DNA of 64,000 bases, from positions 338,472-402,471 of the forward strand of contig JBAZKL010000002.1 in assembly GCA_041650835.1 (NCBI GenBank). Reading direction: 5' to 3'. This DNA comes from Candidatus Omnitrophota bacterium. GTDB lineage: Bacteria > Omnitrophota > Gorgyraeia > Gygaellales > Profunditerraquicolaceae. The translations under genes were made by a program, and so were the position numbers. The notes below the pieces were generated by a model that was given only the letters and a program-made list of their open reading frames with translations, searched no databases and was not told where the DNA came from. Shown here in pieces: positions 1,975-45,173 of this stretch (positions are counted from its first letter, which is position 1; every line of letters begins with the position of its first letter).

Positions 1975-3765
1975 ATGGATAAATCACACATACGCAATTT
2001 CAGCATCATCGCGCACATTGATCACGGTAAATCGACCCTTGCCGACCGGATGCTGGAGATCACCGGCGTCATCGATAAACGTAATTCACACGACCAGATG
2101 CTTGACGATATGGACCTGGAACGGGAGCGGGGGATCACGATCAAAGCATCGACGGTCAGGCTTCCCTACACGGGGAAAGACGGAAAAGAGTATATCTTTA
2201 ACCTTATTGATACTCCCGGACATGTCGATTTTACCTATGAAGTTTCAAAATCACTGGCAGCATGTGAAGGCGCTATCCTGGTTGTTGACGCCGGGCAGGG
2301 AATAGAAGCGCAAACCGTCGCTAATTATTATTTAGCAATGGAGAATAACCTGGCAGTAATACCGCTCATAAATAAGATCGATCTTAATACCGTTGATATT
2401 CCGCGCACAAAGAACCAGATCATTTCTGTGCTCGGGTATAAAGACGAAGAAATACTGCTGGCTTCCGCAAAAGAAGGCATCGGCATCAAAGAGATATTTG
2501 AAGAAGTGATAAGGGTCATCCCTGCGCCGCCGGGGGTCATCGGTAATCCTTTAAAAGCCCTGATCTTTGACTGCCGTTTTGACCCTTATCGCGGGGTCGT
2601 TGTCTTTGTCAGGGTCGTTGATGGAAAGATCGACTCCGGCTCACAGATCATCATGATGCATTCAGGGAAGATCTATAAATTAGAGGAGATCGGGGTCTTT
2701 AACCTTAAATATTCCAAAGTCGATGTGTTGACCTGCGGGGAAGTCGGCTATTTTATCGCCAATATTCGCGACCCGAGGGAAATTATCATCGGGGACACGA
2801 TCACCGACATCAAAAATCCCTGCGCTGCGCCGTTACCCGGATACAGGACATTAAAACCGCTGGTTTTTTGCGGGATCTATCCGGTCAACCCGGGTGATTT
2901 CACCAATTTACGGGAAGCAATGGACAAGCTCAAACTCTCAGACGCGTCATTCCAATTTGAACCGGAGAACAGCCAGTCGTTCGGGTCAGGATTTCGCTGC
3001 GGTTTCCTGGGCCTTCTCCATATGGAGATCGTCCAAGAGCGCCTGGAGCGTGAATACGACTTAAACCTCATTCTTACCGTTCCGAATGTTGTTTACCGAG
3101 TGAAGAAAAAAGACGGAGAGGTCATTGATATCGATACACCCGCTAAATTTCCCGCCTCCGACATAGCGGAATCGTTTGAACCATATGTAAGCCTCTTAAC
3201 CATCATTCCGGTTGAATCAATTGAAGCGGTATGTGAATTCGTAAAATCGCGCAGGGGGACTTTTCATTCGACGGAATACCTGGGTATCGACAGGGTCAAG
3301 CTTGTTTTCAATATCCCGCTTTCCGAGATCATCGTTGATTTTTATGACAGGATAAAATCATTGACCAAAGGATACGGTTCTTTGGATTATGAATTCAAAG
3401 ACTACGTGCAGACGCAACTGGTCAAACTGGATATTATGTTAAACGGCGTGGTCTGCGACGCTTTTTCGACCCTGATCTGTAAAGAAAAGGTTTACCATAA
3501 AGCGCACGCGCTGGTCAAAAAACTAAAAGAACTCATACCCCGGCAGCTCTATGAGATATCTATCCAAGCAACTGTCGGCAGCCAGATCCTGGCATCTGAA
3601 AAAGTGCGCCCCATGGGAAAAAATGTAACCAGCAGGTGTTCAGGAGGAGACATCACCAGAAAACGTAAACTTTGGGAAAACCAGAAAAAAGGAAGAAAGC
3701 GCCTCAAACAAGTCGGTAAAATAGAGATCCCGCAGGAGGCATTCTTGGAGGTATTAAAATTATGA
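1975..3765 (+). CDS. lepA: elongation factor 4 (LepA), translational GTPase
   Basis: IRNFSIIAHIDHGKSTLADR G1 motif, DTPGHVDF, LINKIDL. The track ORF starts at TTG 1957; ATG 1975 gives the canonical LepA N-terminus. Confidence 0.95.
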   Translation: MDKSHIRNFSIIAHIDHGKSTLADRMLEITGVIDKRNSHDQMLDDMDLERERGITIKASTVRLPYTGKDGKEYIFNLIDTPGHVDFTYEVSKSLAACEGAILVVDAGQGIEAQTVANYYLAMENNLAVIPLINKIDLNTVDIPRTKNQIISVLGYKDEEILLASAKEGIGIKEIFEEVIRVIPAPPGVIGNPLKALIFDCRFDPYRGVVVFVRVVDGKIDSGSQIIMMHSGKIYKLEEIGVFNLKYSKVDVLTCGEVGYFIANIRDPREIIIGDTITDIKNPCAAPLPGYRTLKPLVFCGIYPVNPGDFTNLREAMDKLKLSDASFQFEPENSQSFGSGFRCGFLGLLHMEIVQERLEREYDLNLILTVPNVVYRVKKKDGEVIDIDTPAKFPASDIAESFEPYVSLLTIIPVESIEAVCEFVKSRRGTFHSTEYLGIDRVKLVFNIPLSEIIVDFYDRIKSLTKGYGSLDYEFKDYVQTQLVKLDIMLNGVVCDAFSTLICKEKVYHKAHALVKKLKELIPRQLYEISIQATVGSQILASEKVRPMGKNVTSRCSGGDITRKRKLWENQKKGRKRLKQVGKIEIPQEAFLEVLKL

Positions 3766-4937: not shown

Positions 4938-5541
4938 TTATCTTATCGGTTCAATACCTACCGCGTATATTTTCGGTATATGTTTAAAAGGCATTGATAT
5001 ACGTAAATTCGGTTCAGGGAATGTCGGAGCAACAAACGCTTCACGGCTTCTCGGAAAGAAATTAGGAATTACCGTATTGGCCCTGGACATCCTTAAAGGC
5101 CTTATTACCGTAACTCTCCTGGGAAATCTGGCGCTTACAAGAACAAATTTTCCGATAGACCCGCCATTACTTCGGATCATCTTTGGCCTGGGATGTATTT
5201 CCGGTCATAATTGGACCATATTCCTGAACTTTAAAGGAGGTAAAGGAGTAGCCACTACCTTAGGCGTTTTACTAGGGGCGGCATGGGTGATCCCGGGGAT
5301 CGGCTTCATATTAGCACTCGTGATCCTTACCTGGCTTGTAACATTCCTGGTGAGCCGTATAGTTTCCGTTGCTTCGATCTTAGCGGCAATATCTTTTCCT
5401 ATATATATGTCCATCAAAAACCTCTCACCAACACTCATTTTATCAAGTTTTATCATATCCGCGTTTATAATTCTACGCCACATCCCCAACATTAAACGGA
5501 TCCTGCAAAAAAAAGAACCGCGCATGTCGTTCAAGAAATAG
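4906..5541 (+). CDS. plsY: glycerol-3-phosphate acyltransferase PlsY
   Basis: GSGNVGATNASR motif and HNWTIFLNFKGGKGVAT; a ~200-aa polytopic membrane protein. Confidence 0.85.
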   Translation: MLWIIIGIIFSYLIGSIPTAYIFGICLKGIDIRKFGSGNVGATNASRLLGKKLGITVLALDILKGLITVTLLGNLALTRTNFPIDPPLLRIIFGLGCISGHNWTIFLNFKGGKGVATTLGVLLGAAWVIPGIGFILALVILTWLVTFLVSRIVSVASILAAISFPIYMSIKNLSPTLILSSFIISAFIILRHIPNIKRILQKKEPRMSFKK

Positions 5542-5550
5542 CCAAATATT

Positions 5551-5590
5551 ATAGTCACAAGTCACAAGTAATCGATAGTCTATAGTTACA
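5551..5590. repeat. short repeat 'atagtcacaagtcacaagta…gatagtctatagtt', copy 1 (immediately 3' of the plsY stop)
   Basis: Near-identical to 47071-47114, which lies immediately 3' of the lexA stop. Contains the direct repeat gtcacaa x2 and tagtc(c/t)atagt units. Confidence 0.45.
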
Positions 5591-5599
5591 AGATATTGA

Positions 5600-5810
5600 G
5601 TGAACGGGCCCTGTCTTGGACTATTTTCTCGCGGGAACGTTTGCCCCGCCCCGGCGTGGCGGGGCTGCACTCAGGTCGGCTGCGTCGCTCTGCCCGACTT
5701 CGTTTATCAAGGGGCATCCATGCCCGCCCCGTTAAAAAACGTAGTTTTCTAACGGGGCCCGCTCCTTGCCTTTATGCCCCGCTCGAAAACAGTCCAAGCC
5801 ACCCGTTCAC
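5600..5810. mobile_element. MITE-like element (~210 bp) bounded by ~30-bp imperfect terminal inverted repeats and carrying GC-rich internal hairpins
   Basis: 5' gtgaacgggccctgtcttggactattttc pairs with 3' gaaaacagtccaagccacccgttcac. Internal hairpins gccccgcc…ggcggggc and gggcat…atgccc. No ORF. Confidence 0.35.
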
Positions 5811-6091
5811 TAAAAATACTAACCATACACAGACCCTCTCGACAAGCTCGGGGTAAACCCTTCGACTTGGTTAACAGGGAAAGCTATCAGGCGCTGGAGG
5901 GTAAACATGTAGTCGATGGTCTATAATCAAGGAAATCCGAGAAACTGAGAAATCAGGGACTATGTAAACCGGATATCGGGGGATCAGGGATACCGGTGAC
6001 AGGGGGCACTGGAGACTGGGGAAATTGAGATAATTAACAAACTTGAGTAGTCTCAGATTACAAATAAAAGATTGAGAAAATTAACATATAA

Positions 6092-6136
6092 GAATAACGA
6101 AAATAACGCAACTAACGATAATAACGATATTAACGA
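6092..6136. repeat. five tandem copies of a 9-nt unit (WWtaacga)
   Basis: aataacga/aaataacgc/aactaacga/taataacga/tattaacga read directly from the sequence. Confidence 0.55.
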
Positions 6137-6397
6137 ATATTGAAAACGCTTTCTATAAAACACTGAAACTCCTTGAAAACATGTAAATTATGATGTTATA
6201 CTCTAACTAAGAAATAGAAGAATGATATCAATTCATAAAAGGTTTTTTTTCACCTCTTATTAAACACTTTAACAAAGTATTAATATAGTATCCCCACCAG
6301 CTACGAAAATCAGGGGATAGCCGGGTTGAACAAAATTAGCTTAGATAAGGTGACAACCCGGCTCCATAAAAGACAATGGGTCAAAACCGAGGTTATT

Positions 6398-6730
6398 ATG
6401 AGAGACCTATTATACCGGAACTTAACTTCACCAAATAAAAACCGAAGGATAATTACCAGTTCCGAAATAGCAGACAAAGAAGGTATCAGGACCGTAATAC
6501 AAAGACATTTCATTTATATTGTTAAAAGAATAAACGGTAAAATACCGCCTAAGCCAAAGCCGTATCTTTACGTTCTAAAAGAAAAGAGCCAAAAGAAACA
6601 GATGGAAAAATTCTTTTGCAGGATCAAAGGCGGGTTTTATATTATTAACAACGGCACTCCGGCACTCGTTCTTTTTACGCATTCACTTAAAATAAACCTG
6701 AGCGCCATAAATAAAACAACTCTTTGTTAA
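6398..6730 (+). CDS. hypothetical small basic protein (uncertain)
   Basis: Internal ATG 6398 of track ORF 6326..6730, with a GAGG Shine-Dalgarno 6 nt upstream. K/R-rich, no recognised motif. The track TTG start at 6326 lies inside a 10-bp stem-loop. Confidence 0.25.
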   Translation: MRDLLYRNLTSPNKNRRIITSSEIADKEGIRTVIQRHFIYIVKRINGKIPPKPKPYLYVLKEKSQKKQMEKFFCRIKGGFYIINNGTPALVLFTHSLKINLSAINKTTLC

Positions 6731-6880
6731 TAGGATAATTGCCACAGCCTATTACAAAAAAAAGGAAGACGCAGCTTGACAAAACAATAAAGTAATTGTA
6801 AACTTTATTAAATGATTTAAAATCTTTTGGGTCCGGTGTTCTCGATTATGGAGGTAATCGGGAAATGCCACGAAAATTCA

Positions 6881-6922
6881 AGCCGGATTGACGAAAAGGG
6901 TCAATCCGGCTTTTTGTTTTTT
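6881..6922 (+). terminator. rho-independent terminator
   Basis: agccggattgac-gaaaag-ggtcaatccggct stem-loop followed by tttttgtttttt. Confidence 0.55.
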
Positions 6923-6958
6923 ATACCTAACCGAGTTCTACATAAGGAATTAAAGTTG

Positions 6959-6988
6959 TTGACAAATAAGGAGAAATGGTACTATAAT
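6959..6988 (+). promoter_or_regulatory. sigma-70-type promoter (TTGACA-N18-TATAAT) for the secreted-fibre operon
   Basis: Consensus hexamers at 6959-6964 and 6983-6988, ~18 nt upstream of ATG 7006. Confidence 0.45.
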
Positions 6989-7005
6989 AACACTTGGGTG
7001 GGACA

Positions 7006-8418
7006 ATGAATAATACATCGAAAAGAATATCCTTAAAATACCTGGTCATGCTGTGCGGCGCAATAGTCTTTTGTGCTTCTGCGGCTGCATTGGCCGCGGA
7101 TATCTTTGACCTCTCCTACAGCCTTACCGAAGGCGGTTTTCGTTTAGAATTCAACCAAGTCACCCCCTCAAGAGGCATTAAAGTCGATATTACCTCTAAT
7201 ATAGCCACCCGCTATGAAATTGAATTAGCAATTGTGCGGCCCTTAGAGAACCGGGATAAACCTAACACGCTCGTCAGAGATAACTTTTTCGTCAGAGGGA
7301 TCCGGGGAAGCAATCAATTCGGCGATTTTCGCCTGCCGCCAAGCGATTCAACCGTCAGGACATCTCAAACTATATATGTTTCCAACACAACGGGGAGCCC
7401 CGACAGCATTACCATGGTGCTTGGGGTAACCAATATTACAACCCTGCCCTCCGGGTATTACACGGGACAAATCAGTTTAACCCTCAGGCCTATCGGATCA
7501 GCCAGGTCGCACGTGGTCAAGTACATTGATATTTCCGCGACTATTCCTCAATCTCAAATAAAAGCTGAAGATAAAAGCGTCAAATTCTCTACGCTTTCAG
7601 GGAACAAGAGGATCACGCTGAATCCCAAGAAAAACGAAACCCAATCAGGCGATATTTTAGTTACCATAAACGGTACTTTCTCGCAGCAATTTAAACTGGT
7701 TCAAACTATACCGCAGCCCCTGGAATCCAAAGAAGGCAACAGGCTGAGCAATGACACAGTAAAATTCTCGGTAAAAGAAACAAGTATCGGATCAGCCGAA
7801 AGCTTAGAGAAAACCTTATCAACTGGAAGGCAAGTTCTATACACATCGCTTCCCGACGGAAAAGCTGACAAGACCTTTGTCATTACGTATTCCCTTAATG
7901 ATATTGCTAAACAGACCGCGGGGGATTATGCTACTAAGATCCAATTCTCCCTGGAAGAAATGGGCAATCTGACGAACCTTGACACTTTTACACTGGAGAT
8001 CAATAACGCACGGACATTCGACTTAACCATAGCGCCCCAGGACCAAATGGGTTCCCTGGATTTCCGTAACCTTAAACCCAATCAACCGCCAAAGCAAAGA
8101 GAAGTTACGGTAGAAATTAAATCAAACATAGGCAAGCGCTATCAAGTGAATCAAAAGCTCTTCGCGCCTCTTACGAACAGGGAAGGGCAAATAGTCCCTG
8201 GCGCGAATTTCACCCTAAAGACTGAAAGCATTTCAACAAAAGGGAGCTTACGCTACCCGCAATCTCAAGCGATAAAAGAAGGCGAGATGACCCTGCTTGT
8301 TTCAGACGCTGCAGGATCTCCCGACTCATTTAAAATAATCTACGAATTAAGTTTTCCTAAAGAGCTTAAAGCCGGCGACTATTCTACCAGGATCACTTAT
8401 TCCTTATCTGAGATCTAA
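7006..8418 (+). CDS. secreted protein with three tandem SCPU-like (spore-coat-U/archaic pilin-like) domains; candidate tip or adhesin subunit
   Basis: Signal peptide MNNTSKRISLKYLVMLCGAIVFCASAAALA. Three ~140-aa repeats each ending in the pilin-like strand SGYYTGQISLTL / AGDYATKIQFSL / AGDYSTRITYSL, with recurring GSPDS motifs. Confidence 0.5.
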   Translation: MNNTSKRISLKYLVMLCGAIVFCASAAALAADIFDLSYSLTEGGFRLEFNQVTPSRGIKVDITSNIATRYEIELAIVRPLENRDKPNTLVRDNFFVRGIRGSNQFGDFRLPPSDSTVRTSQTIYVSNTTGSPDSITMVLGVTNITTLPSGYYTGQISLTLRPIGSARSHVVKYIDISATIPQSQIKAEDKSVKFSTLSGNKRITLNPKKNETQSGDILVTINGTFSQQFKLVQTIPQPLESKEGNRLSNDTVKFSVKETSIGSAESLEKTLSTGRQVLYTSLPDGKADKTFVITYSLNDIAKQTAGDYATKIQFSLEEMGNLTNLDTFTLEINNARTFDLTIAPQDQMGSLDFRNLKPNQPPKQREVTVEIKSNIGKRYQVNQKLFAPLTNREGQIVPGANFTLKTESISTKGSLRYPQSQAIKEGEMTLLVSDAAGSPDSFKIIYELSFPKELKAGDYSTRITYSLSEI

Positions 8419-8489
8419 AAGGAGGTGATTGGATTCAAGAGATTTAAAAGGGAAGGGCAACTAACACAATTAAAAGGGGGGCAGTAAAA

Positions 8490-9188
8490 ATGAAAAAAAC
8501 AGTAGGGATCATGCTCGTAGTTCTCTGCGCGCTTGGAATTGCTACTTTGGCGTTTGCCGACATTGCCTTAAGTGTCAATGCCGTAGCTGATTCAGGCACT
8601 ACACTGGGAACGCACGCAATGCTCAGATGCACGGGTTATAATTACAATTCCGCCGGAGACCCGTGGACACAATGCACCAATCTTGGCGCTACAACAACGA
8701 TGAGTTTCGGGACCTTGACGCATTCGCTTAAGAATACCGCCGGTCAAACGACAGGAGACGCGGGTTGTTTCTATGGTGATTATTTCTTCATCATATACCT
8801 GTTCCCTGACTGCTGGGGCGGCAAAGGATACGACCTTAAGCAAACCACATCAAGCTTCTCAACCGAGATCAGGAACGCGGTTGTGAGGACTCCCGTATAT
8901 TCCAAAGACGACAAATATTCCGGAGCTGCTGCTCAAGGCGATTTGACCACTGCGGAAAAAGCCTTGAATCCTCAATTAGGAGTCGGCTATCTCGCACGGG
9001 ACTCTGCTGAAGGCAATAACCGGATATTAAAAGCCAAGAGGGCAAGGATCGTTCGCGCGGAATACGGCATTCCTCCGTTCCCGGGCACAGGTCAAACCAG
9101 GCCTACTGGCTGGGCTGCCATAGAAAAAACCACCTTGGCAGGCACCTATTCTGGCAGTGTTACAATTACATTGACAGAATGGCAATAA
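8490..9188 (+). CDS. SCPU-domain (spore coat protein U-like) secreted pilin-like subunit
   Basis: Signal peptide (…ATLAFA/DI), GGGGG-type RBS 9 nt upstream, C-terminal AGTYSGSVTITLTEWQ. The latter matches the G-x-Y-x-D/G-T-V-T-V-T C-terminal strand of archaic chaperone-usher pilins. Confidence 0.55.
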   Translation: MKKTVGIMLVVLCALGIATLAFADIALSVNAVADSGTTLGTHAMLRCTGYNYNSAGDPWTQCTNLGATTTMSFGTLTHSLKNTAGQTTGDAGCFYGDYFFIIYLFPDCWGGKGYDLKQTTSSFSTEIRNAVVRTPVYSKDDKYSGAAAQGDLTTAEKALNPQLGVGYLARDSAEGNNRILKAKRARIVRAEYGIPPFPGTGQTRPTGWAAIEKTTLAGTYSGSVTITLTEWQ

Positions 9189-9318
9189 TATTCTATAATA
9201 TTGCCTAATGGAACGACATGATCAAAAGGTAATAAAGTAATCTAACTTCAGGATACTAAAGGATTTATTCCTTTAGTATCCTGAGGTTTTTTAATTTCTG
9301 ACTAAAGGAGTGTCACGA

Positions 9319-10215
9319 GTGTTAAAGCGGATATTACTGCAATGTTTGGTGCCTGTCGTTACTTGTTGTTTCATAACAACAGCTTATGCTCAAGGGATAT
9401 CTTACAGCCTTGATAAATCTAAAGTCCGGGCGCTCCTGCCACCGGGAGGCTCACAATCAGGGGCCATTAAAGTATACAGCCAGACAAACGACACTTTAAA
9501 ATTTAAAGTTTATTTCGAGGACTGGATTTATGAAAAGATACAAGATGGCGCGAAAGAATTCATGCCGGCCAATACTTCAGCATTCACCTGCGCCACCTGG
9601 ATACAATTTAATCCGGCAGAATTCACCTTGACCCCTTACGGCATTCAAACAGTTAATTATGTTATTGCCGTTCCGGCTGACGCAAAAGGAAGCCACGTAG
9701 GAGTTATGTTCTTTGAAACCAATACGGCAGATAGCGCCGGCATTGAAATAGGCAAATCACAAGAAACCTTACAATCAGGCGTCGGCCTCGATATCCGGAT
9801 CGGCTCCTTATTCTATGTTGATGTTAAAGGAGCGATAAATCGAAGCGCTGAACTAAAGAAATTCTCCGTCACTAAAGATTCCAAAAACAAGAATTTTATC
9901 ATCTCCGCCGATCTGAAGAATACCGGAGATGCCGATATTACGACCGAAAGCACCTATCACATTACGGATAAGCAAGGCATGATTTACGCCCGGGGCAAGT
10001 TTAATCCTGTGTATACTCTGCCGGGAGACGAAGCGGAAATATCTTCTACCTGGAAAGATTCTATCCCCCAAGGGACATATAATATTGTTTTAACCGTCAA
10101 CCTGGGGAAAGCGATTGAGGAAGCAGGACTGGGCCGCGGCCCTATCATGCTCAAAGAAACAGAGATCGAAATCAACTCAAACGGAGAAGTTACAAAGATT
10201 GGAACACTCAGATAG
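9319..10215 (+). CDS. periplasmic PapD-like (Ig-fold) pilus chaperone-like protein
   Basis: GTG start with an AAGGAG RBS, then a signal peptide. The N-terminal stretch YSLDKSKVRALLP…IKVYSQTNDTLKFKVY parallels the PapD N-terminus (SLDRTRAVF…, conserved Arg). Two beta-sandwich-like halves. Confidence 0.45.
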   Translation: MLKRILLQCLVPVVTCCFITTAYAQGISYSLDKSKVRALLPPGGSQSGAIKVYSQTNDTLKFKVYFEDWIYEKIQDGAKEFMPANTSAFTCATWIQFNPAEFTLTPYGIQTVNYVIAVPADAKGSHVGVMFFETNTADSAGIEIGKSQETLQSGVGLDIRIGSLFYVDVKGAINRSAELKKFSVTKDSKNKNFIISADLKNTGDADITTESTYHITDKQGMIYARGKFNPVYTLPGDEAEISSTWKDSIPQGTYNIVLTVNLGKAIEEAGLGRGPIMLKETEIEINSNGEVTKIGTLR

Positions 10216-10234
10216 ACGGCTACCATACACATCA

Positions 10235-13039
10235 ATGCGTAGATTCTTTGTTTTTATCCTCATATCTGTTTTTTTACTCGCGAATTTCTTTCCCGCGTAC
10301 GCATATACCTATTTACCTGATTACCTCTGCCAACTGGGGCTGCAATTTTACCTTGAAGGAAGATACGATGACGCCCTCTATCAATTTAAGAACGCTCTCT
10401 TAGCGCAACCGGATAATCAACTCGCTTTAAAATACATCTCAATCATCCAGGAAGAACAAACCGGACAGCCGCAAGCTCAAGCGCAAATTCCCAGCTCCAC
10501 ATACCAGGGGCAATCAGAAGTTTTAAAGCTGCGCGAAACTCCCGGATTAATTACAAGAACTCCTTCTTCCGGCGTAAACGCCGAGTATAACGGTCTGCCT
10601 CAAGCACCCCAAAAGGGGTACACACCTGAATTTGACGCTTCAAAAGTAAGTACGGAAAAAACCTACGCACCCGGCCTTGTCGTTTTGGATGAGACATTCA
10701 AAGACATCCCTAAACCTATCGAGTTGGAACAAAACCGAAGCATCATTATCAGGGGCAGCAACATTCAAAGATTCTTAGCCACACAGCCCGATATAATCAC
10801 CGTTACCAGAAGCAATGCCGATGAAATAGTAGTAACCGGAAAAGAAGTCGGATATTCATATGTGCATGTTTGGGATAATACTGACCGTTGGACAGTTGAC
10901 TTATTAGGCATATTTCCCAAGCCTGAAGCGCCTACCTTTGAAGAATTACGCAGGCAAGAGGAAGAATTGAACCAAAGCTTTAAATGGTATTATTCCATTG
11001 ATTGGGCATCTTTTGAAACAGGCAGAAGGTTACGAAAAGATGCTTTAAACAGGACATCCTATGCCTGGACCCACAGCCTGGGAGTGACCGGCCAAACACC
11101 GTATGGCTTCTTCGACTCTTCAATGACCGCGCGGTCTAACTCTCTGAATACCGACCTCACCTACTATACCATCGGGTTAACCAACGGCCAATACGGGATC
11201 TTAAAGAATTTTTCTCTGCGCGCCTTTGATTATTCCCTGCCATTCGCGAACCTGGCTTTTTCCGGAGCTCAATTGCGCGGTGTCACCTTTAACACCCCTC
11301 TTTTTAATAAAAAACTCGATTATACCCTGTTCTGGGGAAGAGAAGGAGGCGGACGTTACGGCAATTTATCGCCGAGTTTAAGTAAAACCAAGAACTCTTT
11401 TCTAGAAGGCGCCAATGTCAGCTTTACCCCGACAAAGCATCAAAACTATGCATTTACGGTAGTGCGCGGGCACGGTAGAGACAGGGAAGAAGACTTAAAC
11501 CCCTACGGATATGACCTGTATAACACCTGGAGCTTTGATAAATGGGGGGCACGCTACGAAATCGCCCATGATTCGGAAACTTTTGCCCATGTTCTGGAAA
11601 CTCATCAGAAATGGTCGTTGGCAAACACAAGTATTTCATTCAGGGACGTGGATACTAACTTCAAGAGCATTACCGGAAACGGCTGGGCGCAAGGCCAGAT
11701 CGGTTCCCTCATGAGCATAAATTATCAACCCGATGAATTATGGAATACTTACGCGAGCCTGGATATTTACAGAGAAAGGCTCTACCCTGCAGAAGAAAAA
11801 CCAAAGCGCCTGAACGAAGATCTTAATTTTAACACTACGTACCAAATGAATCCCGATACCAGTTTTAATTTCTCGTATTCCTTTCAAAACGACCTGGGCA
11901 AGTTAGCGCAAAGCCGCTACATTTCGACGAATTTAGGGGTCACGCAAAAAATGTACTTCCTGAAAGATATGTACGGATTCGCTAATTATTACCATCAGAT
12001 CAGCCAGAATTTTTCTTCACCGGCTTCCGACTACGTAAATGACAGGTTCTTCGCGGGTATCCGTTTTAATTTAATCGACGAGCTTTACTTTTACGCAAAT
12101 AAAGAAATAAATTTATTGAAAGAAGATTTCTCGGGCGTACACTATCATCCTCACTCGACTGAAACCGGCGTTGATTACTCAAGTAAGATCGGCAGCTCTC
12201 CTTTTTACGGGAACATGCGATTTTATTACCGTGATGAAGAAGCGGCCGACGCTTCGTTAGGTTTTCTTTCAGGCGAGGATTCGATCGAAGGCCACCTTGA
12301 ACTTACCTACCGGGCCAATGATAACAATGAAATATACGCCGCAACGACAGTACGCAATGTGTGGGCGGATAAAGAAACAGTAGAGAAACGTATTGAAGCG
12401 AATTTTAACGTCGGTATGCGCTGCATGTGGGATACAAACTACCGCTGGGAAACAGTAGGCAATATTGAAGGATACGTATTCAAGGATGAAAACTCCGACG
12501 GCTTAAAACAGAAGAATGAAGCTCCCGTAAGTGAAGCAAAAATATGGCTCGGGAACCAAGACTATACGACGACCGACGTTTTCGGTTATTTCAACTTCAG
12601 GAAGATCAAGGCGCGTAAAGCGTACGTGAGCTTTGATACTTCAAGCTTGCCGCCGGGTTTTGTCTTGACCGTCCCGGTAAACCAGGAAGCAGTTCTTTCA
12701 CAACATCGGATAACTCGAATAGATTTCGGGATCATTTCACGCGCGGAAGTATCGGGGATGGTCTTTGAGGACACCGATAATGACGGGAAATACACGCTTT
12801 CTAAAGATAAAGGAATAACAGGCGCGGTCATTACCCTGGAGAACGGTAAACAATTAACCACCGATAACACAGGTAAATTCTACTTCCCCAATGTCAGCAC
12901 GGGAAAACACACTATCAGCCTCGACCTCAACAGCCTGCCTATCTACTACCTTCCGAAATCAGCGATCACCCATGACTTCGAACTTTTTGAAGGTTCCACC
13001 TATATCTATAATATCCCCATTAAAAGGATCCAGGAGTAG
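10235..13039 (+). CDS. outer-membrane protein: TPR + secretin-N/'pilus formation N-terminal'-like domain + large Tyr/Asn-rich beta-barrel + 2x Cna-B/SdrD-B-like Ig domains; candidate usher analogue
   Basis: Signal peptide MRRFFVFILISVFLLANFFPAYA. TPR (LQFYLEGRYDDALYQFKNALLAQPDN). SIIIRGSNIQRFLATQPDIITVTRSNADEIVVTGKEVGYSYVHVWD resembles the CpaC/RcpA N-domain. Two C-terminal repeats GxVFxDxxNDGKx…TDxxGxFxF. No secretin P.L..IP..G.LF signature. Confidence 0.5.
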   Translation: MRRFFVFILISVFLLANFFPAYAYTYLPDYLCQLGLQFYLEGRYDDALYQFKNALLAQPDNQLALKYISIIQEEQTGQPQAQAQIPSSTYQGQSEVLKLRETPGLITRTPSSGVNAEYNGLPQAPQKGYTPEFDASKVSTEKTYAPGLVVLDETFKDIPKPIELEQNRSIIIRGSNIQRFLATQPDIITVTRSNADEIVVTGKEVGYSYVHVWDNTDRWTVDLLGIFPKPEAPTFEELRRQEEELNQSFKWYYSIDWASFETGRRLRKDALNRTSYAWTHSLGVTGQTPYGFFDSSMTARSNSLNTDLTYYTIGLTNGQYGILKNFSLRAFDYSLPFANLAFSGAQLRGVTFNTPLFNKKLDYTLFWGREGGGRYGNLSPSLSKTKNSFLEGANVSFTPTKHQNYAFTVVRGHGRDREEDLNPYGYDLYNTWSFDKWGARYEIAHDSETFAHVLETHQKWSLANTSISFRDVDTNFKSITGNGWAQGQIGSLMSINYQPDELWNTYASLDIYRERLYPAEEKPKRLNEDLNFNTTYQMNPDTSFNFSYSFQNDLGKLAQSRYISTNLGVTQKMYFLKDMYGFANYYHQISQNFSSPASDYVNDRFFAGIRFNLIDELYFYANKEINLLKEDFSGVHYHPHSTETGVDYSSKIGSSPFYGNMRFYYRDEEAADASLGFLSGEDSIEGHLELTYRANDNNEIYAATTVRNVWADKETVEKRIEANFNVGMRCMWDTNYRWETVGNIEGYVFKDENSDGLKQKNEAPVSEAKIWLGNQDYTTTDVFGYFNFRKIKARKAYVSFDTSSLPPGFVLTVPVNQEAVLSQHRITRIDFGIISRAEVSGMVFEDTDNDGKYTLSKDKGITGAVITLENGKQLTTDNTGKFYFPNVSTGKHTISLDLNSLPIYYLPKSAITHDFELFEGSTYIYNIPIKRIQE

Positions 13040-13052
13040 TCCCCTGAACGCT

Positions 13053-13415
13053 TTATCGGCTGTAAAATGTCTTTACCACAACAATGACTCCGGATATCTC
13101 ATTTGACTGCGTGTCAGCTTTCTTTTCTTGTTGGATCAATTCTGAAGCCTGCTCCTGAACAGGCGCGCTTTCTTTTTGTATCGAAGGTACTTCGGTTGAC
13201 TGCTGTTGCACGCTTTGATTATTCGGCGAAACAACGCCAAAAGAGCCTTGTTGAGGACCTTCCTGGGCTTTTTGAGCATCACTGGCGATCAAAGGCGCGT
13301 TTACTCCGGGAATAGCCGGAATAGTACATGACATGGAAAAAGACGCGTTCTCTGCGTACACAGTCCCCATCAGCATTAAGGATATCAGCCCTGCGATCAT
13401 TAAATTTCTTTTCAT
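13053..13415 (-). CDS. small secreted Gln/Ser-rich protein
   Basis: Signal peptide MKRNLMIAGLISLMLMGTVYA, low-complexity Q-rich middle, C-terminal hydrophobic strand VIVVVKTFY. Confidence 0.4.
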   Translation of the reverse strand: MKRNLMIAGLISLMLMGTVYAENASFSMSCTIPAIPGVNAPLIASDAQKAQEGPQQGSFGVVSPNNQSVQQQSTEVPSIQKESAPVQEQASELIQQEKKADTQSNEISGVIVVVKTFYSR

Positions 13416-13477: not shown

Positions 13478-13738
13478 TCACCGTGGCTGGTGGGATCTAA
13501 TATGGCCCAAAACCTCCAGGATCCTGCTTTCGAAATCTTCTTCTGACCTTAAATTCTGTCCGTCTATATCCAGCTTTTTGGTAAAATCTATCAGCCATGC
13601 GATCAATTTTGCGCGGGATAGCTTTAATCCGGAAGAGAAAAGGGCGTCTTTACCCAGTTTGTCCAGGAAATCAACTTCACCCCGGTTTAGAAACGTAACG
13701 ACCCTTTGATTTTTTTCCTGATACAGGTTGTTTTTCAT
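13478..13738 (-). CDS. hypothetical small cytoplasmic protein (possible DNA-binding)
   Basis: ATG with a GGGGG RBS at the internal Met (MKNNLYQEK…) of track ORF 13478..13777. The upstream part of the track ORF overlaps a terminator. Confidence 0.35.
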   Translation of the reverse strand: MKNNLYQEKNQRVVTFLNRGEVDFLDKLGKDALFSSGLKLSRAKLIAWLIDFTKKLDIDGQNLRSEEDFESRILEVLGHIRSHQPR

Positions 13739-13791
13739 GCTGCCCCCAAATAAAAAACCCCGGCTTGTTTTAGGCAAACGAGGCCAGGGTA

Positions 13792-13824
13792 TAAAAAAAA
13801 ACCCCTAAAGGAATTCTTTAGGGG
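13792..13824 (-). terminator. rho-independent terminator for the 14053..17304 gene
   Basis: cccctaaag-gaattc-tttagggg hairpin followed by a 9-nt T-run on the minus strand. Confidence 0.6.
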
Positions 13825-14052
13825 TTCCTTCTGGCAACGCAGCCCCCCGATTAATTAATCGGGGCTGTCGCTTTGCGCCCCAGCATTACTGCTGGTTTGC
13901 CTTTTACAGTACTCGAAATTGTCAAACCGAACTCGGGCCGATCGCCCTTATCCCTATCTCCAATTAAAATATAACATATATTTACACATATTTCAAGTTT
14001 ACCGCGCTATTATTTTATCAATATCACAATGTGTCATTTTACCCTAAACACT

Positions 14053-17000
14053 TTATTCCAGGTATACATCAAGAGCGGTTATCTGACGGTTACGCACTCC
14101 TTGAGCGTACGCAGCAGGGAGCGTGTCGGAATTGAGAATGACCGGATGAGCCGATTCATCTTTAAAGCTGATCCTTTTAACCGACACACCGCTTTTCCCA
14201 AAAGTATCTTTCTTTTTCTGATTATGATAGGTTACCACGACAGAACTTAAGAAATGGAACATATAAAAACCTTTTTTATCAAATAGCCAGCCGGGCAGCA
14301 CCGGCTTTACTCTTAATTGCAGTTGTCCGTCCTCACCGAGAAAGAAGGGGGTATGCCCTATATTCATGATCAACCACATATTAATGAATTCAACGGTCGA
14401 ACCCGAAAGGCGTGCGACAAATCCATTGCCGTGCAATTTTTTTTCCGGAAAAGCGCTGCTGACAATAAAGGAAGAATTCTCTAAAATGCTTCTTCCGTAA
14501 CACTGAGGGTCTTGGAAAGGGATAAGCACATTCTTAAATTCCTCAAAATATTCTTTATACAAACCGCGCTTTAAAAGCTCAAGGATATATTTATACTCCA
14601 TATGCAGCCATATCGATTCATTTTCCAGCCACCCGGGAGTGAAAATACGGCACCTGCCGATCTCTTCAGGCATATCCATGAGCGACGCGGTAACTTTATA
14701 CATCTTAAGCTTTTTGTCATAGAGCGGGCTCTTTCTTGTCGCCTGATACAACGATTGAGCGCTCAGGCGATCTTCACTGAGCCGCAGCGCGTGCATATGC
14801 CCTTCAAGAAAAAGAGGAAGGGGCTTTTGTCGGAATTTGGTCGCTCGAACATAGGGTTTCTCTAAAGGCTCATACGCGGTGACCTCATTAATAAAATAGG
14901 ACAAATAGGTGCCGGACTTTTTGTCAAACGCTTTGGCAATCCCCAGATCAAGCTTCGTTTGAGCCTTTTTAAGAATAGTGAGTGCTTCCTGAGAGCTCAT
15001 TTCCAGCTCTTTACCGCTCAAACCGGATTTTGTTTTCTCCCGGTACGCCTCTTTCAGCGAATTACTGGCATCCCAATAAGTAAAGTCGCCTTCACTGCCG
15101 CCGGCTATCGACTGATCGATCAATCCTCCAAGTTTAACAAAAAAATCAAGGATATCCTCATCGACCCTGACCGATTGCACACCGGCAGCGGTCATGGCCT
15201 TCATCATAAAAAGCAGCAATCGTTTTAATTCAAATGTCTCGCACAGCGAAGAGCCGAAAAGAGCAGGCAGGCCGTTTAACGCGTCAAACCAGTTAGGTTT
15301 ATTTGCCTCCATAGCAACGCCCACGCCGAAAGGATCCAGGCTCGACATCTTATTAACCATAAGGCAGAACAGCTTATTGATCAATGTCGTTTTATAGACA
15401 TCACCCGTCCCGTATGCAGCGCGGACCACATGCGCCTCAGTTGCCCTCCGCATGATCATATCCTTCTTCTCAAGGTCAAGTGAGACCGAATGAAATTGAC
15501 GCACGCTATCTTTATGCAAAACATATTTCTTATTGCGCGGGTTAACAACTTCGGCATTATCAAAAAAGCTGAATTGCCTGCTTTCAAATACGATCTCCTT
15601 CAACTTCTCGGGGTACACTCCGAGATAACTTTCCAGCAGGTCCAGATTATAGGTCCAATGATCGGTCCAGAAGCCTTCTACGTGTTCAGCTTCCTGGTTT
15701 TTACTGGAGTGGGCCAAAAGGATATTCAAGAACTGGTCATTTGAAACGTTTAACTTGACGCCTTGAGCTTCCAGAAAAAAGACCAATTCTCCCGGGCTAA
15801 AAGGTTGGGTTAAAAAAGAAAGCAAAAGTTCCGTGTCCCGGGCTGACATCAGGCTCAGTAACACATCTTTCAAGACGAGAGGGTCTTTCATCACAAATCT
15901 ATCACCCTTAACCACTAAAGGATTATAACCGTCTGTCTGCAATAAATTAAAGAAAGTAACGATATTTTCTTCCCTAATATTAGGATTAAACCAGACATCG
16001 CAACGCCTGTTCTGGTTCACATCGCGGTAATTACCGTTACCTTGCGAAAAATAGGTCGGCTGGATCGAGAAACGGTTGTAATCCCGCTCTAAGTCTCCAT
16101 GCTTACGGGAATAAAGATAGAAAACCGCGGCGCGATATTCCGGCTTCATAGGCTTACGGGCGAACTGAGGAGAAACAAAAATAGTAGGGTAGCCGCCCCG
16201 CATAATATTATCAAGGTAGGTCTGGCGCACATAAAGATCAAATTCCTTCCGGGCGCTTTTAGTGTTGATATTCACCTCTAATTCTTCTATCGTGCTCTTA
16301 TTCTCTATTTTTTTCTTTTCGAGATATCCTGACGCCGTAATCCTGCCGACAGAAGCATTCAATATACCCAGGTTACGCATATTCCCGGCTACGCAGTGAA
16401 AAGTCTTACCAGCCCCCGCAGGCAATCTGAAAGATAAGGGAATAAAAGCCGAAGGTGTTTTACTGCGCAAGCTCATGACGGCCGCCGGACGGAATTTCCT
16501 ATTATCAACAAAAGCCCGCGGATAAGAAAAATCATTCTCAGTGCCGAAAACAGATTCCGGGTCGACTAAAGGAGTAATGACCTGAGGGGAACCTTTTTCA
16601 TAGTGAAAACCTAAATAAAAATTGCCTTGCTCGATATGGACCACTTCTGGCCTATCGGCAGGATCAACGCTTAATTTATAAAAAGGTACGCCTCGTTTTA
16701 AGTTTTCGACAACCATCCAGGCTTCGATTGTCCGGCTCATTTTCTTTAAAAAGAAATTATTGACGCCGAAAGGGACGACTTGAGGCAGGCCGTCGACAAG
16801 TTCGATCTCTTTGGCTGACCTTGAAAGGTTCGCAACAGTCACATTCCTCACAAGCCCCGCGTAAGAATCTTGAGGGACCGTAAAATAATCCACCGAGATA
16901 CTTAATCCCAAAGTCCTATTGATCTCCTCCAATCTCAAGCCATATGAGGTAATGAACATCTTATTGGACACAAGGTATCGTTCATTAACGAATCCTGGCC

Positions 17001-17304
17001 GGAATGGTTCGTACATCCTGAAGCTATTTTTAGTCATAACTTTCAGAAATGTCCGGAACCCGTGAGTGAATACTGTTTCCCACGCTTTATTTGCAGGCTG
17101 GAATTCAAGTATTGAGTTATCTTTATCTTTAATACCGAAGCTGCAGATCGCCTGGCCGCGATTGACATAAAAGGCCCACATCGGAATGCCATACTTACCC
17201 GCGATGCCGGGGAAGAAATTAGCAAACGGCTTGGCAAGATTATAGTTTTCTATGACAAATTCATGGTCAGCGTTGAGATAATATTTTGGTTTGGCTGCAC
17301 TCAT
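14053..17304 (-). CDS. large (1083 aa) glycoside hydrolase/glycan phosphorylase-like protein, (alpha/alpha)6-barrel type, family unresolved
   Basis: Uninterrupted 3.25-kb ORF with a GGAG RBS. The N-terminal beta-sandwich-like region (YYLNADHEFVIENY…NRGQAICSFG) resembles GH94/GH65-type phosphorylase N-termini. The C-terminal W/H/Y-rich helices (WLENESIWLHMEYKYILELL) resemble the same families. Family call is tentative. Confidence 0.5.
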   Translation of the reverse strand: MSAAKPKYYLNADHEFVIENYNLAKPFANFFPGIAGKYGIPMWAFYVNRGQAICSFGIKDKDNSILEFQPANKAWETVFTHGFRTFLKVMTKNSFRMYEPFRPGFVNERYLVSNKMFITSYGLRLEEINRTLGLSISVDYFTVPQDSYAGLVRNVTVANLSRSAKEIELVDGLPQVVPFGVNNFFLKKMSRTIEAWMVVENLKRGVPFYKLSVDPADRPEVVHIEQGNFYLGFHYEKGSPQVITPLVDPESVFGTENDFSYPRAFVDNRKFRPAAVMSLRSKTPSAFIPLSFRLPAGAGKTFHCVAGNMRNLGILNASVGRITASGYLEKKKIENKSTIEELEVNINTKSARKEFDLYVRQTYLDNIMRGGYPTIFVSPQFARKPMKPEYRAAVFYLYSRKHGDLERDYNRFSIQPTYFSQGNGNYRDVNQNRRCDVWFNPNIREENIVTFFNLLQTDGYNPLVVKGDRFVMKDPLVLKDVLLSLMSARDTELLLSFLTQPFSPGELVFFLEAQGVKLNVSNDQFLNILLAHSSKNQEAEHVEGFWTDHWTYNLDLLESYLGVYPEKLKEIVFESRQFSFFDNAEVVNPRNKKYVLHKDSVRQFHSVSLDLEKKDMIMRRATEAHVVRAAYGTGDVYKTTLINKLFCLMVNKMSSLDPFGVGVAMEANKPNWFDALNGLPALFGSSLCETFELKRLLLFMMKAMTAAGVQSVRVDEDILDFFVKLGGLIDQSIAGGSEGDFTYWDASNSLKEAYREKTKSGLSGKELEMSSQEALTILKKAQTKLDLGIAKAFDKKSGTYLSYFINEVTAYEPLEKPYVRATKFRQKPLPLFLEGHMHALRLSEDRLSAQSLYQATRKSPLYDKKLKMYKVTASLMDMPEEIGRCRIFTPGWLENESIWLHMEYKYILELLKRGLYKEYFEEFKNVLIPFQDPQCYGRSILENSSFIVSSAFPEKKLHGNGFVARLSGSTVEFINMWLIMNIGHTPFFLGEDGQLQLRVKPVLPGWLFDKKGFYMFHFLSSVVVTYHNQKKKDTFGKSGVSVKRISFKDESAHPVILNSDTLPAAYAQGVRNRQITALDVYLE

Positions 17305-17668
17305 TACGGTAAGCTCCTTTTATTAATAGTATTCAATAATGAAATATTTTACCTGTAATAGCGCATTTGTCAACCAATATGACGTGCTTCCGGGAGACAG
17401 TCGGCACTCATGCCTGCTTAAGCATAAACTGGCTTTATTTAAGGCCAGGCATTACCGCAGAAAGAGGCACACCCGCGCAATTCGGCCTCCTGAAAGCGCG
17501 GCATACCCCGCCATTCCAATTAGGCGGGGTGCGCTTAGCGAGGGGATGTTTTCAGTGATCGGTTATCAGGATAGGTTCCCGGTTATCGGGTACTCAGAAG
17601 AAAAGTGTAGGTATACTATCACCGAGAACCGAGAACCGAACACCATATATTCACCATATATTTACCAA

Positions 17669-40338: not shown

Positions 40339-40513
40339 AGTTGTATTATAACAAAGATATCTATTTTGTAAAGATAGAAGTAGGTTAGCGCAGAAGGCGC
40401 TACACCCCGCGCAAATTTTCTCCGGTATCACTATTGACAAATAGAATTTATGTGTTATAATTATCAAATAAGAGCAAGAAGCCACGGCTTACTCAAGCGA
40501 AAAAAAGGTAAGT

Positions 40514-44995: not shown

Positions 44996-45173
44996 TATAC
45001 ACGCTCCTGAAAACACAGAAGACAAACAGCGTAAAAAAAGTTCACGTATGACAAGTTCAACATGAAAACGCGCGGGTTATCATTGGTACTTGACAAAAGC
45101 CAGACCCATAATATAATAAACGCGTTGTTTTATACTGTTGGAAGAAGTAAACAAGCCACCCAAAGGAGGAGAA

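Follow-up and report, generated by a model that had tools for sequence, protein, structure and literature searches.

A cluster of four consecutive genes on the forward strand of a Candidatus Omnitrophota contig (JBAZKL010000002.1, assembly GCA_041650835.1) probably encodes a phylum-specific, highly divergent chaperone-usher-type system that would assemble a surface fibre or adhesin. The cluster was analysed within a stretch of 64,000 nucleotides (contig positions 338,472 to 402,471), hereafter called the window, and coordinates are those of the window unless another locus is named. The four open reading frames (ORFs) are ORF1 (7006-8418, 470 amino acids (aa) counted from an ATG, an in-frame TTG at 6994 being also listed as a start), proposed as a tip or adhesin subunit; ORF2 (8490-9188, 232 aa), a secreted beta-sandwich protein proposed as the major subunit; ORF3 (9310-10215, 301 aa), a two-domain periplasmic protein proposed as the chaperone; and ORF4 (10235-13039, 934 aa), an outer-membrane protein proposed as a usher-like assembly pore. 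Pili of the chaperone-usher kind are a textbook subject, described for the most part in Proteobacteria and in a few other phyla, and to our knowledge all ushers described so far belong to one sequence family. The cluster resembles the enterobacterial pili built by FimC/FimD, PapD/PapC or EcpB/EcpC in combining subunits, a two-domain chaperone and a large outer-membrane protein, but it differs from them in having no usher, PapD or fimbrial Pfam match.

The first-pass annotation of this DNA had reported four successive signal-peptide-bearing genes, and all four ORFs and their signal peptides were verified. The sequence itself shows that each protein starts with a Sec signal peptide, in which a basic n-region precedes a hydrophobic core and a cleavage site of the A-x-A type. 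Related loci were sampled by scanning one genome per species with ORF4, which yielded 104 relatives, and 80 of these loci were fetched (L001-L080). The ORF4 relatives are full-length in most of the 120 matches listed, and those named by source come nearly all from Candidatus Omnitrophota bins, one being labelled by a TPR description only; a protein identical to ORF4 is encoded on a 676-kb JGI contig. A neighbourhood search for the same four-gene arrangement, proposed at the first pass, found it to recur across the Omnitrophota: the order 1-2-3-4 is present in about 60-75 of the 80 related genomes, beside housekeeping genes. Gene 3 adjoins gene 4 in 74 of the 80 loci and a gene 1 family member is found in 60, contig ends accounting for most absences. 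The number of gene 2 copies varies from 1 to 3 per locus, and the gene 2-gene 3 pair is co-duplicated in about ten loci (L008, L012, L015, L038, L060-L062, L064, L071 and L073).

The homology signal that ties the cluster to known pili comes from ORF3. A profile built from 58 family members and compared with the PDB retrieved the fimbrial chaperone EcpB (5dfk, E-value (E) 8.9e-5) and, over the full length, the Enterococcus protein EfmWxLIP1 (9i25/9i1y, E 0.007). Reference chaperones and ushers were taken from E. coli K-12 fimbrial operons for profile-profile alignment with hhalign. The ORF3 family aligned with 11 E. coli PapD-like chaperones at a probability of 84.5% (E 7e-6, 170 columns, both domains), and with EcpB and EcpE at 95.6% (E 1e-8, 166 columns); the cross-controls (ORF4 against chaperones, ORF3 against ushers and ORF2 against chaperones) gave at most 3%. 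Both basic residues of the chaperone cleft (R8 and K112 in PapD/FimC) have a counterpart. The arginine of the ORF3 K-I-R-L motif (R40) aligns with FimC R8 and is basic in 57 of the 58 members, and R163 aligns with the arginine of the EcpB strand S-A-R-I-G-T-I-L and is basic in all 58. In ORF3, an alternating hydrophobic strand leads up to R163 (V-x-[LV]-x-[VI]-R-[IV]-G-x-L-F-Y). No C-terminal membrane helix was found among the 58 members. When members were scanned singly against Pfam, WxLIP_PGBD (DUF916, PF06030) was touched by 14 of the 58 and an Fn3-like domain by 28. ORF1, ORF2 and ORF3 used as single queries matched nothing in Pfam, NCBIfam or the PDB sequences. The suggestion that the third gene encodes a PapD-type chaperone is thus borne out by remote homology over both domains and by the conservation of both cleft basic residues: from these alignments ORF3 appears to belong to the PapD-like superfamily as a soluble and distant member, with the EcpB type as its closest kin and the WxLIP proteins as further relatives.

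Positions 571-1680 of locus L090 and 1992-3044 of locus L091 encode the ORF3 relatives that are most distant, with lengths of 350-370 aa. One of them, P0201, a clear homologue (E 2.6e-17), combines LysM and WxLIP_PGBD domains and lies beside glycosyltransferases. Because P0201 sits in a different gene context, it hints that the chaperone-like fold is in wider use in cell-envelope contexts; the gene contexts of P0201 and of P0203, which is likewise among the most distant relatives, were otherwise uninformative.

Pfam confirmed for ORF4 the domain list read at the first pass, namely TPR, T2SS-T3SS_pil_N (PF13629; 27.6 bits for a cutoff of 23) and two SdrD_B/CarboxypepD_reg Ig domains. ORF4 alone gave no Pfam usher match at E<=1, and the canonical usher model PF00577, which was to be checked on this protein, is not matched across the barrel; the domain set and, among the 25 most frequent of 30 families, the absence of a usher match hold for 36 of 36 relatives scanned. 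A structural model was built with AlphaFold2 from an alignment of 36 sequences, with a predicted local distance difference test (pLDDT) score of 79.5, the barrel being mostly at 85-96. Along the model, helices at residues 2-76 (the signal-peptide region followed by TPR-like helices at about 26-76) are followed by a linker predicted to be disordered (77-143, about 65 residues), a small beta domain corresponding to the pil_N match (147-226) and a helix (235-245). Residues 250-733 make up the predicted barrel, which counts about 26 strands, has short turns on one side and contains no insert as large as a plug; residues 741-931 fold into two Ig-like domains at the C-terminus.

The ten best Foldseek matches of this model in the PDB were all full-length FimD or PapC structures (E 1.5e-20 to 5e-16, 760-814 columns). 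Isolated usher barrels reached about 2e-9, the best non-usher barrel 5.5e-8 and other barrels about 1e-7. As isolated barrels score far lower, the match is driven by the collinear succession of N-terminal domain, barrel and two beta-sandwiches. The template modelling scores (TM-scores) are 0.3-0.4 only. The model therefore qualifies the earlier statement that ORF4 departs from the usual usher layout. The predicted order, a periplasmic N-terminal beta domain, then the barrel, then two C-terminal beta-sandwiches, is that of FimD and PapC and does not support it; the departures that stand are about 26 strands instead of 24, the absence of a plug, the added TPR and linker, and flanking domains of other families, pil_N and SdrD_B. 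On the predicted structure ORF4 is thus usher-like in architecture and not a demonstrable member of the usher family, a likeness that could reflect either very old common ancestry or convergence. The PF13629 region common to the 36 relatives is also that of the CpaC/RcpA secretins of Tad pili. Unlike them, ORF4 has no secretin domain, and the remainder of the protein is predicted to be a single-chain barrel of the monomer type, not a multimeric channel. The most conserved stretch of the ORF4 family, a glycine-rich, invariant loop (F-W-G-R-E-G-G-G-R-Y-G-N-L-S-P, residues 366-380) between strands 7 and 8, is a candidate gate.

Other assignments of ORF4 were considered. An exopolysaccharide export porin, combining TPR and barrel as in PgaA, BcsC or PelB, was rejected, its structural scores being below those of ushers. 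A TonB-dependent or SusC-type receptor, combining CarboxypepD_reg and a barrel, was rejected likewise; it scored below ushers and neither a plug nor a TonB-receptor family was reported. A transitive link from ORF4 to ushers was not obtained from a profile search of 1.8 billion proteins: among the 150 matches listed, where barrel-only distant relatives are not visible, those outside the family were multi-repeat proteins aligning only with the C-terminal SdrD_B/Ig-like region.

The two subunit candidates both end in a conserved strand. ORF1 consists of three homologous, beta-rich domains arranged in tandem, each about 140 aa long (pairwise hhalign probability 99.2-99.8%), every one of which ends in G-x-Y-x-x-x-I-x-[FY]-x-L, the last copy forming the C-terminus. 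The C-terminal half of ORF2 is weakly similar to these domains (hhalign probability 40-91%). The strand strings singled out at the first pass, AGTYSGSVTITLTE in ORF2 and AGDYSTRITYSL in ORF1, are indeed located at the extreme C-termini and conserved family-wide. ORF2 evolves fast, with 16-75% identity to the window protein among aligned relatives, and the homologues found are all unnamed Omnitrophota proteins. Three features are conserved in its family: a strand at the N-terminus of the mature protein ([ST]-x-T-[IVL]-x-V-x-A-x-[VI]-P), the F of F-G-T-L, which is invariant, and the terminal strand G-x-Y-x-G-x-V-T-I-T. In the predicted ORF2 structure, pLDDT averages 72-75 in residues 21-40, a segment containing the N-terminal strand (24-33), as against about 95 for most of the body; in this model the low value would be compatible with a swappable strand.

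ORF1 has no match in Pfam or the PDB, and comparison of the subunit folds with the solved Csu/CupE pilins revealed no close fold in the PDB. The only near-match of the ORF1 profile, at a non-significant E of 0.26, was to CfaE/CfaB, class 5 pilins in which this strand motif recurs. Since these class 5 pilins carry it too, G-x-Y-x-G-x-[IV]-x-[IL] seems, as far as sequence can tell, to be a generic pilin-type F-strand motif rather than a signature of SCPU pilins. The subunits also stand apart from enterobacterial pilins, the ORF2-type proteins being beta-sandwiches of about 200 aa without a close pilin neighbour and ORF1 containing three complete domains in tandem.

These elements can be assembled into a working mechanism. 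Sec would export all four proteins, which bear signal peptides, and in the periplasm ORF3 would capture the subunits ORF2 and ORF1. Its alternating hydrophobic strand ending at R163 would fill the subunit groove, while R40 and R163 would anchor the C-terminal carboxylate of the subunit; such anchoring would account for the position of the conserved last strand of ORF1 and ORF2 at the very C-terminus. ORF4 would serve as the outer-membrane platform, with its pil_N domain receiving the chaperone-subunit complexes, its barrel conducting the folded chain and its two C-terminal Ig-like domains holding the growing end. Subunits would be linked when the chaperone strand gives way to the conserved N-terminal strand of the ORF2 that follows. 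Being composed of three complete tandem domains, ORF1 would enter first and thereby occupy the tip. The fast variation of ORF2 and its co-duplication with ORF3 are what would be expected of an exposed major subunit and its cognate chaperone.

Several results weigh against a chaperone-usher-type system. The SCPU model PF05229 was matched at E<=0.1 by none of the 104 subunit sequences (59 ORF2-family and 45 ORF1-family members), so that the SCPU/Csu-type label given to the pilins at the first pass, whose strand motif also occurs in CfaE/CfaB, is not retained. None of the 58 ORF3 members matched the PapD models PF00345/PF02753. PF00577 was not among the 25 most frequent of 30 families for the 36 ORF4 relatives (E<=0.1), and hhalign of the ORF4 family against eight E. 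coli ushers, a set not including sigma-clade ushers, returned a probability of 1%. The predicted barrel is built of about 26 strands and lacks an inserted plug. Finally, fibres of this kind have never been observed, and the pili recorded in the main genomic survey of Omnitrophota are limited to type IVa and Tad pili, with no usher (PMC10066038). Neither this cluster nor a link between WxLIP proteins and ushers was described in the publications retrieved by our literature searches. The locus is more than another chaperone-usher member, because three of the four defining families find no member in it, and less than a categorically new system, since it shares the chaperone-usher principle through its architecture and the homology of its chaperone.

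The same data can be read in other ways. An ordinary archaic (sigma, Csu/CupE-type) member that has drifted past detection by hidden Markov models in a deep-branching phylum seems improbable to us. The archaic pili (Csu of Acinetobacter, CupE of Pseudomonas, Mcu of Myxococcus) are likewise widely distributed outside enterobacteria, and the terminal strand of the subunits, G-x-Y-x-G/D-x-V-T-V/I-T (G-x-Y-x-G-x-V-T-I-T in ORF2), together with the F-G motif (F-G-T-L), resembles, at the level of motifs, the SCPU pilins of PF05229. DUF4402 was also touched by 2 of the 59 ORF2-family members (E 2e-3), and the usher-like domain order of ORF4, its best structural matches and the PapD-like chaperone would all fit such a member. 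However, none of the SCPU, usher and PapD models was reported for any member scanned, the strand number and missing plug of the barrel are not those of a usher, the domains flanking it come from other families (pil_N and SdrD_B), and the chaperone is nearest to EcpB and WxLIP among the E. coli chaperones and PDB entries compared. The WxLIP relationship leads to another explanation, to which we give a small chance: a diderm counterpart of the WxL/WxLIP (DUF916-DUF3324) complexes of Firmicutes, in which the ORF3 scaffold would hold ORF2 and ORF1 by strand insertion and ORF4 would export or anchor them without any polymer being formed. WxL clusters likewise pair one small and one large secreted protein with one WxLIP, whose hairpin is predicted to insert into WxL (PMC10599100). 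The two-Ig-domain WxLIP protein is related to ORF3, as judged from the full-length EfmWxLIP1 match, from the PF06030 hits and from the WxLIP_PGBD domain of P0201. None of the 58 ORF3 members, however, has the C-terminal membrane helix, and ORF3 therefore cannot be a membrane-anchored scaffold. Moreover, the WxL domain model matches neither the ORF1 nor the ORF2 family, the hhalign link to true fimbrial chaperones is the stronger one, and the partner ORF4 is an outer-membrane barrel of usher-like architecture in a diderm organism.

ORF4 could also be a new outer-membrane translocon, convergent with ushers, that brings ORF1 and ORF2 out by secretion or display, either as monomers or in the form of a surface coat, with no donor-strand exchange; its likeness to ushers would then come from a common recipe of a big barrel and Ig-like domains. 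The absence of sequence homology to ushers, the low TM-scores, the near-generic score of the barrel alone, and the secretin-type N-terminal domain and TPR of ORF4 all speak for it. We nonetheless see a rather slim chance for such a translocon, as the strictly adjacent PapD-like chaperone with its cleft residues is hard to explain without strand complementation, and the conserved terminal strands of ORF1 and ORF2 and the co-duplication of gene 2 with gene 3 also stand against it.

The chromosomal setting of the cluster bears on its inheritance. Upstream neighbours within the window are lepA, lepB, pgsA and plsY, and the phylum-wide order is pgsA, plsY, ORF0 (about 110 aa) and genes 1 to 4 (about 470, 200-250, 290 and 940 aa, respectively), then the convergent genes d1 (about 100 aa) and d2 (about 90 aa), often followed by a gene of 1080 aa. 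Because gene order and neighbours are conserved across the phylum, the locus is core, vertically inherited Omnitrophota DNA. The first-pass annotation had instead seen, ahead of the cluster, a 1.4-kb AT-rich non-coding island suggestive of horizontal acquisition. The stretch is AT-rich only over 6001-7000 (33-35% G+C), 5501-6000 having 50% G+C, and it is not non-coding, as it contains a conserved gene, ORF0, and a conserved structured leader RNA. Horizontal acquisition of an island is ruled out by the order pgsA-plsY-ORF0-cluster, kept across the phylum, and by the conserved gene and RNA within the stretch. ORF0 (6398-6730, forward strand), located between plsY and the cluster, encodes a small basic protein of about 110 aa without signal peptide. 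Homologues occupy the same position at 27 loci with 35-95% identity, and neither Pfam nor the PDB gave a match. ORF0 directly precedes the leader RNA in 30 of 57 instances of the latter, and a role as its regulator would be speculation.

The leader RNA, or small RNA, extends over 6827-6921 on the forward strand; it is conserved, structured and covarying, and ends in a terminator. An A/T-rich spacer separates an upstream promoter from its near-invariant 5' element UCCGG (6832-6836). Then come P2 (6839-6864), a hairpin with a variable stem and a preserved UGGAGG loop, the conserved element GCCACG (6867-6872) and, as intrinsic terminator, AGCCGGATTGAC...GTCAATCCGGCT followed by a U run (6880-6921, stem 6880-6912). 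Over about 6775-6925, DNA identity to more than 20 distant loci amounts to 70-87%, in loci where neighbouring proteins share only about 31-44%. A search of 5450-7050 with Rfam 15 (4227 models, permissive filters, E<=1) returned only a chance-level hit to ceN82 (E 0.58, 23 bits for a cutoff of 80 bits). RNAalifold recovers the hairpin and the terminator. A covariance model, R1, detected 57 same-strand copies in the window and the 80 loci, and the leader is present in 48 of the 56 loci having gene 1 with upstream DNA. Nearly all copies lie directly 5' of the first structural gene, at about -30 to 130 nucleotides (ORF calls being over-extended), and a second copy precedes each duplicated sub-cluster.

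Among 59 distinct leader sequences, 93.8% of the cells are paired and double changes occur at 21 of 23 pairs, which 0 of 500 shuffles equalled. Each of the 7 pairs of the hairpin displays 15-26 double changes, slid controls being 25-49% paired. The alignment was fitted to the covariance model, which favours structure; the MAFFT seed alignment agrees. An independent metagenome scan using the terminator sequence alone recovered 64 stretches (L092-L155), about 45 with the full motif. Of the 43 metagenome copies with at least 300 nucleotides downstream, 31 have a gene-1 or gene-2 homologue within about 10-106 nucleotides. Pairing is also possible between the 5' UCCGG and the terminator's 5' arm (82.7-93.6% paired), and in locus L058 all three copies co-change; we hypothesise that this pairing forms an antiterminator, the covariation for it being thin. 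The leader could thus attenuate read-through from the distal promoter, or it could be an independent small RNA about 110 nucleotides long. Candidates for its ligand or partner include a small molecule, the proteins ORF0 and d2, and a CsrA-type protein that would bind the GGA loop. Altogether, it is a well-supported candidate for a new cis-regulatory RNA.

A promoter-like site, TTGACA-N17-TAAACT (6776-6804, forward strand), would drive the leader. Conserved columns are visible there in the alignment of related loci, and TTGACA-N16-18-TAnAnT occurs 5' of the leader motif in 38 of the 57 instances, ending 11-38 nucleotides before it (mostly about 20-26). The perfect sigma-70-type promoter TTGACA-N18-TATAAT noticed at the first pass is located at 6959-6988 on the forward strand, downstream of the leader terminator and proximal to ORF1; near-consensus second promoters lie between leader terminator and gene in 27 of the 57 instances. 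Perfect consensus promoters number 4 in the 64-kb window, for 0.06 expected by chance, and two of them belong to this locus, the second (9171-9199, forward strand) overlapping the end of ORF2. The other two, both TTGACA-N16-TATAAT, are found at 40434-40461 and 45090-45117 on the forward strand. Between ORF2 and ORF3 lies a 20-bp terminator-like hairpin with a T run (9244-9288, forward strand), and hairpins with a stem of at least 12 bp are present at the gene 2-gene 3 junction in about 16 of 58 loci. A transcript started at 9171-9199 would run straight into the 9244-9288 hairpin. A single promoter driving four genes, as initially described, is therefore too simple a picture, given the promoter at 9171-9199, the hairpin at 9244-9288, and the promoter and terminated leader upstream of 6959. 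The pap and fim operons have a hairpin after the subunit gene that is comparable with the one between ORF2 and ORF3, which may set the stoichiometry of subunit to machinery.

On the reverse strand, the convergent d2-d1 operon is preceded by a riboswitch region (13785-13910) comprising a cyclic di-GMP-I (c-di-GMP-I) aptamer of the GGC variant (13910-13829), then a 17-bp terminator hairpin and a U run. The c-di-GMP-I families RF01051 and RF03167 were compared; the match is full-length and scores 64.5 bits for an Rfam gathering cutoff of 59, so that by sequence the aptamer qualifies as a c-di-GMP-I member. It was found in the same place in 13 of the 15 related loci scanned. It resembles the c-di-GMP-I riboswitches that accompany pilus and adhesion genes in its above-threshold aptamer and its terminator, but here it would control the convergent d2-d1 pair and not the subunit genes. 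d2 (13478-13738, reverse strand, ATG at 13738) encodes an 86-aa cytoplasmic protein with 22 invariant columns and no match in the PDB or Pfam; our guess is a ribbon-helix-helix-type regulator. d1 (13053-13415, reverse strand), found in 69 of the 80 loci and convergent with ORF4, encodes a small secreted protein of 120 aa with a conserved mature N-terminus (S-x-[ST]-I-x-V-S-C-T-I-P-A-I-P-G-V-N-A-P), a variable acidic E/Q-rich linker and a conserved C-terminal T-[IV]-Y-S-R. We rejected d1 as a donor-strand-only relative of ORF2: the link seen with jackhmmer and hhalign was lost after trimming of the signal peptides (probability 2.4%), and the remaining likeness is a short N-terminal strand motif only. 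The riboswitch on d2-d1 may connect the locus to a surface-attachment signal. Control of the whole would thus combine tandem promoters separated by the terminated leader, a hairpin after the subunit gene and the c-di-GMP riboswitch on d2-d1.

Two further features of the window were noted beside the cluster. The syntenic 1083-aa neighbour (14053-17304, reverse strand) corresponds to a GH161-type beta-1,3-glucan/cellobiose-type phosphorylase (PDB 9h8v, E 6.5e-232; 9qqk, E 1.5e-231) with no Pfam match; it is found in 34 of the 80 loci and is probably unrelated to the pilus genes. Following plsY, about 500 nucleotides (5542-6070, forward strand) are G+C-richer, non-coding and rich in short inverted repeats, e.g. 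gccccgccccggcgtggcggggc. Conservation of this stretch is lacking already in L001 and L002, the closest relatives, and two short pieces of it match positions 17296-17448 of locus L036, far from the cluster there; it may be a small mobile or repeat element.

A farther-reaching reading, rather doubtful in our estimation, would make the locus a separate and ancient lineage of strand-complementation fibres. It would combine a chaperone of shared PapD/WxLIP ancestry, a pore of usher-independent origin (26 strands, no plug, secretin-type N-domain) and a new subunit fold, and would serve these ultra-small and host-dependent bacteria as a near-universal attachment organelle. A new class of riboswitch or attenuator, the UGGAGG-loop leader, would gate the subunit genes, alongside the c-di-GMP riboswitch.

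Omnitrophota are nanobacteria thought to live attached to hosts. The preferred assignment to a divergent chaperone-usher-type system means that a candidate phylum carries chaperone-usher logic with a pore and subunits that escape all family models, and with a chaperone, ORF3, that sits between fimbrial chaperones and Gram-positive WxLIP proteins. The leader RNA and the c-di-GMP riboswitch make the regulation of the locus testable in vitro without culturing. If the assignment is true, it would widen the known range of donor-strand assembly, offer a test case for the evolution of ushers and chaperones, and give Omnitrophota a third candidate attachment organelle beside type IV and Tad pili.

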